Source: Raineyaceae bacterium (GTDB lineage: Bacteria; Bacteroidota; Bacteroidia; Cytophagales; Thermonemataceae). Taken from it: a stretch of 15,492 bases of DNA. Both the position numbers and the translations under genes were made by a program. The notes under the pieces were generated by a model, which did no database searches, was not told the origin of the DNA, and was given only the letters and a program-made list of their open reading frames with translations. Positions 267 through 14,452 of this stretch are shown piece by piece. Each line of letters starts with the position of its first letter. Within the stretch, counting starts at the first letter, position 1. The stretch is taken from NCBI GenBank assembly GCA_043772375.1, contig JAYVGJ010000233.1:1-15492 (forward strand), in the 5' to 3' direction.

Positions 267-308
267 TTTTGTATTCATTCACAACTCACAATTCACAATT
301 CATAATTA
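267..308 (+). repeat. Gene-start-proximal motif, copy 1: TTTTGTATTCATTCA + heptads CAACTCA/CAATTCA/CAATTCA/TAATT, about 30 bp upstream of rng start
   Basis: Direct sequence comparison with copies at 3063-3100(-), 4409-4447(+), 5209-5235(-), 5469-5508(-), 14412-14452(-). Confidence 0.6.
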
Positions 309-339
309 CCTACATACAATCAACTAAAAAAATACGAAC

Positions 340-1899
340 TTGAATAGTGAATTAGTTATTAATTCTACGCCAGAAGGGGTGCGTATTGCCCTTTTGAAAG
401 ACAAAAAAATTGTAGAATACCATATTGAGGAAACTGGAAGTAATTTTGGAGTAGGAGATATTTATTTAGGAACTATTCGTAAGATAATGCCTGGGCTAAA
501 TGCCGCTTTTATTGATATAGGGTACGAAAAAGATGCTTTTTTACACTATCTTGATTTGGGCGCAAATGTGCCTTCATTGCTAAAATATACCAAAGACACT
601 ATTGCCAAAAGGCAGCAAACACACAAATTAGATACTTTTACGCTTGAGCCACCTATTGAAAAAATAGGCAAAGTAACGCAAGTGCTTAACCGTAATACAC
701 CAATTCTTGTTCAGATAACCAAAGAACCCATTTCTACAAAAGGACCTCGTTTATCTTGCGAAATCTCTATTGCAGGGCGTTATATGGTGCTTGTGCCATT
801 TGCTAGTTCTGTCAATATTTCTAAGAAAATAGCTTCAAAGGAAGAAAGAAATAGGCTTTTAAGGCTGATTAGTTCTATCAAACCTAAAAATTTTGGCGTG
901 ATTGTGCGCACTGCCGCAGAAGGCGTTGAGGTAGCAGAACTTGATACAGATTTGCGTGATTTGGTAGAAAAATGGGAAACTGGTTATAATAAATTGCGTG
1001 ATGCAATGCCTCGTGACAAGATTTTGGGCGAAATAGGGCGTGTAAGTTCTATTTTGCGTGATATGTTGAATGATAATTTTGATAGCATTTTGGTAGATGA
1101 TAAAGCTATTTTTGAAGAAATAAAAGCTTTTGTAAAAATTATCTCACCAAAACACGAAAAAATAGTCAAATTTCATAATTCAAAAGTGCCTATTTTTGAA
1201 CTTCTGAACATAGAAAAACAACTTAAAAGTTTGTTTGGAAAAACAGTTAGTTTGCAAAAAGGCGGTTATTTGGTCATAGAACACACAGAAGCATTACACG
1301 TAATTGACGTGAATAGTGGCAACAAATCAACAGCGCAAGAAAGTCAGGAAGAAACAGCACTTGCCGTAAACCTTGAAGCAGCAGCAGAAGTCGCTAGACA
1401 GCTTCGTATGCGTGATATGGGCGGTATTGTGGTAGTGGATTTTATTGATATGAAACGTGCTGAATACAAATTACAAGTATTTGAAAAAATGCGCCAAGCA
1501 ATGGCAGAAGACCGTGCCAAACATACTATTTTGCCTATTACAAAGTTTGGACTGATGCAAATCACACGCCAAAGAGTGCGCCCAGAAATGAACATCAAAA
1601 CCCTAGAAGATTGCCCTACTTGTGCAGGAACAGGCAAAATTGGTTCTAGCATCTTGATTTCTGATAACATTGATTTAATGCTGGCACACGTTTTGGAAAA
1701 GCAAAATGAAGCGGGAATTACGCTCACTTTGCACCCATTTTTAGTAGCTTATTACACAAAAGGCTTTCCTTCTAGGCGTGCAAAATGGTTTTTCAAATAC
1801 AAAAAATGGATAAAAATTATTGCAGATAACTCCTTGTCTATCAATGATTTCAAATTCAAAAATAAAGAAGGCATTGAAATAGAACTAGAAAAATTCTAA
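340..1899 (+). CDS. rng: Ribonuclease G (RNase E/G family; S1 domain + catalytic domain), TTG start
   Basis: 519 aa. N-terminus MNSELVINSTPEGVRIALLKD...GDIYLGTIRKIMPGLNAAFIDIGYEKDAFLH aligns closely by eye with E. coli RNase G N-terminus (MTAELLVNVTPSETRVA...GNIYKGRVSRVLPGMQAAFVDIGLDKAAFLH). Also QTEALHVIDVNSG and CPTC Zn-link-like motifs. Confidence 0.9.
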   Translation: MNSELVINSTPEGVRIALLKDKKIVEYHIEETGSNFGVGDIYLGTIRKIMPGLNAAFIDIGYEKDAFLHYLDLGANVPSLLKYTKDTIAKRQQTHKLDTFTLEPPIEKIGKVTQVLNRNTPILVQITKEPISTKGPRLSCEISIAGRYMVLVPFASSVNISKKIASKEERNRLLRLISSIKPKNFGVIVRTAAEGVEVAELDTDLRDLVEKWETGYNKLRDAMPRDKILGEIGRVSSILRDMLNDNFDSILVDDKAIFEEIKAFVKIISPKHEKIVKFHNSKVPIFELLNIEKQLKSLFGKTVSLQKGGYLVIEHTEALHVIDVNSGNKSTAQESQEETALAVNLEAAAEVARQLRMRDMGGIVVVDFIDMKRAEYKLQVFEKMRQAMAEDRAKHTILPITKFGLMQITRQRVRPEMNIKTLEDCPTCAGTGKIGSSILISDNIDLMLAHVLEKQNEAGITLTLHPFLVAYYTKGFPSRRAKWFFKYKKWIKIIADNSLSINDFKFKNKEGIEIELEKF

Positions 1900-14318: not shown

Positions 14319-14411
14319 ATTTTCCAATTGTTTTTTAGATTAGGAGATAAGTAATAATAATAGCAAAAAATTACTTTCAAATCTAAAAAAAACTATCCAA
14401 AAAACCTAAGT

Positions 14412-14452
14412 AATTGTAAATTTTAAATTTTAAATTGTGAATGAATACAAAA
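14412..14452 (-). repeat. Gene-start-proximal motif, copy 6 (minus orientation: TTTTGTATTCATTCACAATTTAAAATTTAAAATTTACAATTAC), about 90 bp upstream of the vault-protein start; a TAGATTTG (-7-like) box lies at 14367-14374(-)
   Basis: Reverse complement matches the motif family; the TAnnTTTG match was found on the minus strand. Confidence 0.6.

Follow-up and report, generated by a model that had tools for sequence, protein, structure and literature searches.

Related copies of a four-unit heptanucleotide array in the intergenic DNA of an uncultured Cytophagales lineage

The DNA between genes in a 15,492-nt stretch from a Raineyaceae bacterium (NCBI GenBank assembly GCA_043772375.1, contig JAYVGJ010000233.1, positions 1 to 15,492 of the forward strand; hereafter the window) contains six copies of a short element in which a common head is followed by tandem heptads of the TTCACAA type. 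An earlier sequence-only reading had described a recurrent element close to gene starts and had proposed three interpretations, namely a binding array for a regulator, an RNA-level element, or a lineage-specific miniature repeat. Here we report that the copies share descent, that they are confined to non-coding DNA, that the nearest relatives lack them, and that an excess of heptads is found throughout the class to which they belong. This class is that of the bacterial heptanucleotide simple-sequence repeats, which also includes the STRRs, the TAACTGA repeats and the GGGAATC repeats of Xanthomonas. Within it, the interpretation that we favour, with confidence and doubt in about equal measure, is a lineage-specific dispersed heptanucleotide repeat of the STRR/TAACTGA type that has at most a generic effect in leaders.

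One plan underlies the aligned copies: a head, YTGTATT (mostly TTTTGTATT), is followed by 2-3 nt (CA, AA or TAA), four YTYAMAA heptads and a YT stub, giving an element of ~41 nt. Six period-7 arrays, at 278-305(+), 3065-3092(-), 4418-4445(+), 5210-5230(-), 5469-5496(-) and 14414-14441(-), were located by direct reading, Tandem Repeats Finder, a regular-expression search, a scan with a position weight matrix (PWM) and a repeat search, and all of them fall inside the intervals described previously. Tandem Repeats Finder called period 7 at 6/6 sites, with 3.6-4.6 copies and 76-94% matches. The six copies are as follows.

Copy 1, 267..307, plus strand: head TTTTGTATT, CA, heptads TTCACAA CTCACAA TTCACAA TTCATAA, TT; PWM score 56.2 bits.
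Copy 2, 3063..3103, minus strand: head AACTGTATT, CA, heptads TTCATAA TTTACAA CTTACAA TTCATAA, TT; PWM score 50.0.
Copy 3, 4407..4447, plus strand: head GCTGTATT, TAA, heptads TTCACAA TTCACAA TTTACAA TTCACAA, TC.
Copy 4, 5201..5241, minus strand: degenerate head TATTATATT, AA, three heptads (5210-5230); PWM score 29.3.
Copy 5, 5467..5507, minus strand: head TTTTGTATT, AA, heptads CTCACAA TTCATAA CTTACAA CTCACAA, CT; PWM score 54.9.
Copy 6, 14412..14452, minus strand: head TTTTGTATT, CA, heptads TTCACAA TTTAAAA TTTAAAA TTTACAA, TT; PWM score 50.5.

With the 41-column PWM the copies score 29-56 bits vs 10.8 for the best shuffle, and no further PWM match beyond the known copies was found in the window or in the adjoining 10 kb. 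Copy 6 is the most AT-decayed of the six. In the repeat search, the element arrays form the largest repeat families of the window, which has a G+C content of 33.6%.

The reality of the motif was assessed with 200 dinucleotide shuffles. A 14-mer of two heptads, with at most 3 mismatches allowed, has 22 matches vs 5.1±2.3 in the shuffles, and 0/200 shuffles reach 22. The core of the head, TGTATT, is rare in the window (24 occurrences on both strands together), and it ends 2-3 nt before the first unit in 5/6 arrays (p~5e-14). The shared head had previously been given as a longer string, the 14-mer TTTGTATTCATTCA; this string is exact only in copies 1 and 6, has two mismatches in copy 2 and is variant in the rest, and alone it is not enriched at up to 3 mismatches (11 matches vs 6.6), the part of the proposed head that the copies have in common is TGTATT. 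A single-heptad fragment at 4265-4274 had been added to the family; its heptad (4266-4272) does not exceed chance, with 9 lone YTCACAA outside the arrays vs 5.3 expected.

Within the heptads, T2, A4, A6 and A7 are almost invariant between copies and positions 1, 3 and 5 vary, the sole exception being an A-to-G change in unit 1 of copy 4 in strain L123. About 30% of the units have C instead of T1. At position 3, unit 3 carries T in 5/7 lineage copies, the other units mostly having C there, and the inferred ancestral array reads TTCACAA TTCACAA TTTACAA TTCACAA. Common descent of the copies follows from the shared head, the same four-unit length and this T specific to unit 3.

Strains that are ~96% identical in coding DNA retain the arrays in place. 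In strain L123, copy 3 keeps its four units with 3 C/T changes, and copy 5 shows one C/T change together with a head change from TGTATT to TGCATT. Copy 4 has three units in the window vs four in L123, where it scores 50.7 under the PWM; this is the one case of a whole-unit length difference between the strains, and the two other comparable arrays keep four. Given that copy 4 has four units in L123, four units are ancestral in every copy. Free slippage would leave the unit number variable among loci; since all lineage copies (7/7) trace to four, we call them dispersed copies of one array rather than free-running repeats. The array substitutions between strains fall at heptad positions 1, 3 or 5 in 5/5 cases. 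Identity between the strains is 93.5% in the arrays, 95.6% in coding DNA, 84.8% in the heads and 83% in other aligned intergenic DNA, the last value being about 90% by our own count from the alignment when two indel-rich stretches are set aside; the arrays are not faster-evolving than their surroundings, and not clearly slower either. Intergenic DNA in the lineage turns over quickly. Where L123 aligns to 4267-4330 and 5675-5705, it has extra small repeats that are missing from the window; among them are a unit of ~50 nt present in duplicate (…AATGTAGAGATAAGGCACTGCC…) and an element that forms a hairpin (TCTGACCTCCGTTCCTACGGTACAGACC … GGTCTGTACCGTAGG…).

In a large protein collection the closest RNase G has 71% identity, and among named organisms the nearest are genera of the Cytophagales, such as Rhodocytophaga, Thermonema and Arcicella, plus Microscillaceae. 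On this basis the host lineage is taken as an uncultured member of the Cytophagales without a close sequenced relative. A comparison of orthologous loci, which the sequence-only reading had proposed, went against a conserved site: four relative loci (L256, L257, L260 and L261; RNase G 68-71%) have no array upstream of rng. This absence indicates that the element was gained within the lineage and is not an ancestral control site. The relatives' loci have a G+C content of 38-49% and almost no period-7 repeats in 43 kb. A search of 241 million metagenome records with the strict head pattern returned one related copy (L252), which has the same element plan. Of the three interpretations proposed earlier, it is the lineage-specific miniature repeat that the common head, the four-unit length, the unit-3 T and the lack of an array upstream of the relatives' rng favour.

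The heptad also occurs far outside this lineage. One genome per species was scanned for three perfect YTCACAA units, no head being required, and at least 120 matches were found; Bacteroidota, Cyanobacteria, Chloroflexota, Acidobacteriota, Planctomycetota, Beggiatoaceae and others are among the matches listed, to which the counts given below for arrays of other genomes refer. The arrays of other genomes have no common head among the matches listed, and their unit number ranges from 3 to 26, with 32% having four. Given this spread, the probability that seven arrays all have four units if grown independently is about 4e-4. In 883 kb around the matches listed, Tandem Repeats Finder called 259 arrays of period 7 vs 10 of period 6 and 40 of period 8; 161/259 of the period-7 arrays are non-seed arrays, with >60 different units. 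The window shows the same leaning, with 7 period-7 arrays and at most 5 of any other period (units AATTCAC, GAATTAG, TTCGTAC and AATTTTA), and the adjacent 10 kb has the heptad unit AATTACG. In viral contigs, tandem triplets of the real heptad form 39 stretches vs 20, 36 and >120 for permuted controls. The view of TTCACAA as a special conserved heptad, prompted by its recurrence in many phyla, was rejected, since three permuted controls are about as common or commoner in viral contigs and the carriers hold >60 other units. The general feature is a strong tendency of some genomes to gather 7-nt repeats; the heptad itself is not special.

For the 98 arrays with an open reading frame (ORF) on each side, the flanking genes were arranged tandem sense in 37, tandem antisense in 29, divergent in 17 and convergent in 15 of the matches listed. 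Among arrays no more than 60 nt from a start, sense and antisense stand at 24:16, and for those equally close to a stop the ratio is 20:26; the ORF calls behind these numbers are a rough heuristic with the array masked. The trend in orientation across phyla has the same direction as in the window and is not significant. A hairpin or terminator role through inverted array pairs was considered and rejected: 8/124 arrays elsewhere have a partner less than 150 nt away, mostly in GC-rich genomes, and there is none in the window. In some GC-rich genomes (L211, L131, L163, L223 and others) a TTCACAA array lies deep in very long ORFs, on the sense strand, possibly as an ORF-calling artefact; an in-frame coding insertion is possible because the forward strand is stop-free in all frames and three units make seven codons. 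The control heptad YTCAACA is extremely abundant in ~100-kb viral contigs (L314-L393, mostly from sample 3300045988), often as inverted pairs ~60 nt apart and several per contig, and looks like a phage-borne family of heptad-repeat hairpins.

A general excess of heptameric repeats was reportedly described by Mrazek and co-workers in 2007. The cyanobacterial STRRs are said, after the work of Mazel and co-workers in 1990, to consist of heptanucleotides amplified in tandem outside genes, a single genome having several families of units. The element resembles them in being made of tandem heptanucleotides in non-coding DNA with several units in one genome. With the wider class it has in common at least three head-to-tail units, a non-coding location, and a genome with several units and a period-7 excess. 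Unlike the strict STRRs, whose unit families are STRR1-3 and whose hosts are (heterocystous) cyanobacteria, the unit is YTCACAA and the host belongs to the Cytophagales; STRR length varies, and no common head has been reported for STRRs. Elhai and co-workers reportedly described very small dispersed repeats (SDR) in Nostoc in 2008, work that is cited in PMC3116915. With the SDR and with REP/REPIN sequences, the element has in common a length of tens of nt, an intergenic location often beside gene ends, restriction to a lineage and similarity between copies. However, REP/REPIN sequences are palindromic and linked to RAYT transposases, whereas the element is a direct repeat without a hairpin or a known associated enzyme. 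It has no terminal inverted repeats, inverted matches being found only between opposite copies kilobases apart, and is thus not a palindrome or inverted-repeat element of the REP/REPIN or MITE kind.

TAACTGA repeats occur in Beggiatoaceae, in cyanobacteria and in five Bacteroidetes including Flexibacter litoralis (Cytophagales), mostly just upstream of start codons (MacGregor 2015, PMC4679880). Their arrays have 2-6 units, are almost all intergenic, are sometimes reversed after stops, are patchy across lineages and differ by 7-nt indels between strains; in the Beggiatoa genome, 147/170 sets face a start, and the repeats have been proposed, without a test, to bind S1, cold-shock or CsrA-type proteins (PMC4679880). 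The element shares with them short tandem 7-nt arrays in intergenic DNA, in some cases forward before the starts of unrelated genes and in others reverse after stops. Unlike TAACTGA, the units here are TTCACAA, CTCACAA and C-to-T variants, the consensus unit being YTCACAA, and a shared head with exactly four units has not been described for TAACTGA; the start-codon bias is also much weaker than in Beggiatoa. Many bacteria have an excess of heptameric simple repeats, for which slippage of the polymerase has been put forward as the origin (Rehm et al. 2015, PMC4692102); the same paper refers to STRR repeats in Calothrix PCC 7601. Among close relatives, the GGGAATC and GGGGAYT repeats of Xanthomonas and Nostoc differ in length and sequence, and they occasionally form inverted pairs (PMC4692102). 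The intergenic excess specific to 7-nt units and the proposed origin by slippage are points of likeness; the GGGAATC and GGGGAYT units are G-rich and can form quadruplexes, whereas the element is G-free on one strand and unstructured. A last case is the ctxAB promoter of Vibrio cholerae, in which TTTTGAT heptads occupy one locus, have a known binding protein and tune the promoter by their copy number (bioRxiv 10.1101/2021.05.14.444153). Contiguous 7-bp direct repeats upstream of a gene are common to both; unlike ctxAB, the present arrays lie at many unrelated loci, in both orientations, with a fixed copy number and no known binder. A search of one literature collection found no relevant bacterial paper with tandem TTCACAA or CTCACAA strings.

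All six copies (6/6) are non-coding and lie between called genes, the identities of which were taken from gene calls and Pfam matches. Copy 1 is sense, with 32 nt between its end and the TTG start codon of rng (340); copy 2, also sense, ends 10 nt before the ATG of an arginase-family gene (3052, minus strand); copy 3 is sense and ends 14 nt before the rsfS ATG (4462); and copy 6 is sense, 93 nt upstream of the start of a vault-like gene (14318). Copies 4 and 5 are antisense, the former 12 nt past the stop of a 58-aa lipoprotein ORF (5021-5197) and the latter 5 nt past the stop of a 46-aa lipoprotein ORF (5323-5463). The distances between array end and start codon claimed earlier were reproduced (rng ~31-34 nt, arginase-family gene 10-12, rsfS 14-16, vault-like gene 84-95). 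The gene names used then agree with the Pfam matches RNase_E_G, Arginase family, RsfS and MVP_shoulder, but for hutG the match extends only to the Arginase family. The genes beside the sense copies, encoding RNase G, an arginase-family enzyme, RsfS and a vault-like protein, are unrelated. Copy 6 is separated from the vault-like gene by a canonical -7 box, TAGATTTG (14378-14385, minus strand), and is itself about 26 nt upstream of the box; because of this box, copy 6 is probably located upstream of the promoter rather than in the leader.

A random 28-nt array in the intergenic DNA of the window would be sense and <100 nt upstream of a start in 23% of cases, and 4/6 were observed (p≈0.03); with the lipoprotein copies counted as one event, the figure is 4/5 sense near a start (p≈0.012). 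This start-proximal sense excess in the window is suggestive and comes from very few sites. No copy was found in the adjoining 10 kb, which has seven or eight more gene starts including those of rpsL and rpsG. The earlier description of the element as gene-start-proximal thus has weak support: it fits the four sense copies, but two copies are antisense after stops, the adjoining 10 kb is empty and the bias across phyla is not significant.

As proposed previously, the two tiny lipoprotein genes are accompanied by a duplicated module: the array, a palindromic box and the sequence downstream can be matched across some 65-90 nt, with the best agreement in the array and the box. The boxes are as follows.

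5248..5260: palindromic box ATTGATAATCAAT, adjoining the head of copy 4.
5510..5522: another such box, CTGATAATCAATT, adjoining the head of copy 5; near-identical to the 5248-5260 box (box repeat family, 87%).

A box of the ATTGATAATCAAT type also adjoins the head in the metagenome copy L252 (about 1843-1855). The box resembles a dimer-binding site, and its partial likeness to Fur and FNR boxes misfits their spacing.

Under the dispersed-repeat interpretation, heptad arrays would arise and resize in 7-nt steps by slipped-strand mispairing or unequal exchange, and would survive only where no reading frame is broken, the reverse strand of the array having TGA in all three frames. One four-unit version would have been copied to new intergenic sites by a DNA-level process, for which mobilisation like that of very small dispersed repeats, or gene conversion, are candidates. 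Any effect on expression would be generic: a sense copy would put a G-free, unstructured A/C/U stretch before starts that have no Shine-Dalgarno sequence. Such sense placement may be tolerated or mildly favourable, and it would account for the modest sense excess.

Several points weigh against this interpretation. The lineage DNA examined amounts to ~25 kb (the window and the adjoining 10 kb). Neither a mobilising enzyme nor a target-site duplication or terminal repeat that would account for the spread of the element was found. Sense copies near starts are in excess within the window (p≈0.01-0.03), and the metagenome copy L252 ends 6 nt before an ATG. The fixed four-unit length in all copies is unlike the prediction of free slippage, and C-to-T decay in an AT-rich genome accounts for positions 3 and 5 but not for the change of T1 to C with T2 constant. 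Given that T2, A4, A6 and A7 are near-invariant while T1 often becomes C, a reading in 7-nt register, by a host factor or by element-copying machinery, is suggested. The 41-nt unit might then be a functional module, either a leader platform for a chain of cold-shock/S1-type proteins or the substrate of a machinery that copies direct repeats. Either role would account for the fixed four units and the near-invariant T2/A4/A6/A7, which slippage and neutral decay do not; on balance we consider such a module rather unlikely.

The rival that survives best is a 5'-leader RNA element, which we regard as possible and somewhat doubtful. Here the four G-free heptads would be a platform for an RNA-binding protein that covers ~7 nt per monomer (cold-shock or S1) and would tune the start of translation in a phylum that does without Shine-Dalgarno pairing, an idea that MacGregor put forward for the TAACTGA repeats. 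Sense orientation at 10-95 nt ahead of a start codon is seen in four of the six copies, but the two others, and possibly the site at 6781 as well, follow immediately after stops in antisense orientation, where the RNA would be the GU-rich complement; copy 6, moreover, is upstream of a canonical TAnnTTTG box and is probably not transcribed with the vault-like gene. A head-plus-unit site 45 nt upstream of cmk and the end of L252 6 nt before its ATG fit the proposal, whereas the adjacent 10 kb, including rpsL and rpsG, is without copies and the relatives' rng does without an array. There is a precedent in Flexibacter litoralis, where 12/14 repeat sets face a start codon 1-43 nt away (PMC4679880), but the cross-phylum sense bias near starts is not significant (24:16 among the matches listed). 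The near-invariance of positions 2, 4, 6 and 7, the length fixed at four units, the confinement of strain differences to the variable positions and the lack of structure in the element RNA are all consistent with such a platform. RNA folds of the copies with flanks are no better than those of shuffles (z -1.2 to +1.6), with no stable stem in the element, and an Rfam 15 search of the whole window gave zero matches. The RNA-level element proposed earlier thus has neither structure nor an Rfam match, and keeps the chance just stated. A pairing of the rng array with the first rng codons was dropped (z=-1.2).

A DNA regulatory module appears improbable. It could be a direct-repeat operator of the ToxR/H-NS-like kind, or the head TTTTGTATT might be a non-canonical promoter element that places the transcript start at the array. 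Bacteroidota promoters were recognised by TAnnTTTG with TTG about 19 nt upstream. No such box occurs anywhere in the upstream spacers of rng and the arginase-family gene, so the promoters of these two must be non-canonical, and the only TAnnTTTG upstream of rsfS is at 4237-4244, about 210 nt before the start. These spacers, and the adjacency of the element to gene starts, would leave room for a module; heads also end in TTTG as the -7 box does, but none (0) matches TAnnTTTG, in agreement with the earlier statement that the element is not the canonical Bacteroidota -33/-7 promoter, and canonical boxes are present elsewhere in the window, e.g. 4939-4946 with a -33 TTG. Also on the side of a module are the palindromic box ATTGATAATCAAT, which abuts the head in three copies, and the canonical -7 box a short way downstream of copy 6. 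Against it, conservation between strains is lowest in the head (84.8%; TGTATT to TGCATT). An operator would be expected at a fixed promoter position, before related genes and conserved in relatives. Instead, anything from 10 to 95 nt separates the element from the start codon, one copy has a -7 box downstream of it, two follow stops and would drive antisense transcription into the tiny lipoprotein genes, the genes are functionally unrelated, and the region upstream of the relatives' rng has no array. The contiguous 7-bp spacing would also put successive sites on different helix faces. We infer that the element is not an operator of a regulator of these genes; the earlier idea of a regulator binding array, which also has to face the two orientations of the copies, receives no positive support. 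By eye, likeness of the element to a DnaA box, IHF site, Fur box or FNR box is partial only. Reading by eye also matched 4263-4276 to the beginning of copy 3 through 14 bp of complementarity; this pairing is not kept in L123 and was dropped.

The weakest proposal, that the arrays grew independently by slippage at each locus or arose by chance in AT-rich low-complexity DNA with no shared element, might draw on a genome of 33.6% G+C that is rich in short repeats and has heptad arrays of other units nearby, but it is contradicted by the shuffles (0/200 reach the observed count), the shared TGTATT head (p~5e-14), the identical four-unit length (about 4e-4) and the unit-3 variant in common, and is hardly tenable.

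Read as a dispersed repeat, the element is, as it stands, an ordinary member of a known and neglected class. Some bacterial lineages are rich in heptanucleotide repeats that their neighbours lack, and no study has shown how these repeats are made or read. The present locus is a clean small case from the Cytophagales, with a fixed-length array, a recognisable head, several unrelated intergenic sites, and bases that are conserved or free according to their position. If the same rules hold over hundreds of copies in a complete genome of the lineage, they would provide a defined sequence with which to ask whether a protein reads it and whether it affects expression, the latter in a phylum that starts translation without Shine-Dalgarno pairing. 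For annotation, the element should not be taken for a regulon motif. No evidence of a dedicated gene switch was found.

Five sites beyond those listed in the sequence-only reading were also noted.

5663..5677, plus strand: head TTTGTATT followed directly by one TTCACAA, 45 nt upstream of the cmk ATG.
3319..3333, minus strand: head-like GGTTGTATT followed by one TTCACAA, between the birA-like and arginase-family genes.
6781..6814, minus strand: possible decayed copy, …CATTCATAAGATTTAACTAAGTAATCACAATTA, 74% to the repeat-family reference and below the PWM threshold.
6409..6435: array of heptads of another kind, GAATTAG on the plus strand and TTCCTAA/TTTGCAA on the minus strand, with a weak PWM score of 7.7 on the minus strand.
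11797..11831: heptad array of a different unit, TTCGTAC x5, between the stop of the vault-like gene and a hairpin.

The site at 5663-5677(+) runs into a perfect 15-nt tandem repeat (5674-5710; ACAAATAACTATTAT x2.5). The possible decayed copy at 6781-6814(-) is antisense and begins at the stop of a 52-aa gene; it was found by the repeat search only and missed by the PWM scan. The 6409-6435 array extends over the final codons and the stop of cmk, so that here the 3' end of a coding sequence has been invaded by a 7-nt repeat. The hairpin beside the 11797-11831 array (about 11752-11790) has, by eye, the look of a two-way terminator, and the array would sit in the 3' untranslated region of the vault-like mRNA.

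Repeats of other kinds are scattered through the window. A tandem repeat with a 15-nt (or 8-nt) unit, TAGTGAAATAGTAAG x2.1, extends over 11614-11644 from the stop codon of a MarC-family gene. In the spacer between the birA-like and arginase-family genes, 3181-3290 is a long imperfect inverted repeat of GCGCAAAG-type octamers, with CGCAAAGA x5 in one arm and complementary units in the other, which looks like another dispersed repeat family. Hairpin-type repeats are found at 6905-7027, where 25-nt arms that are 96% complementary stand 73 nt apart (GTCGTAGTGGGACACTACGAC), and at 15435-15489, with a perfect 20-nt inverted repeat (GTTTGGTGGGGACACCAAAC). The start of the contig (window 1-50) is a G-rich, hairpin-like GGGGAGC…CCCCTCC, and assemblies seem to break at such repeats. 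Within the birA-like gene (minus strand), the hexamer TAGCAC is repeated 6.7 times at 3645-3697, and L123 is without 36 nt there, in-frame. The product of the vault-like gene (11838-14318, minus strand) is 826 aa long, has the shoulder domain of the major vault protein (PF11978) and matches Vault_3 faintly; it is a bacterial relative of the eukaryotic vault shell protein.

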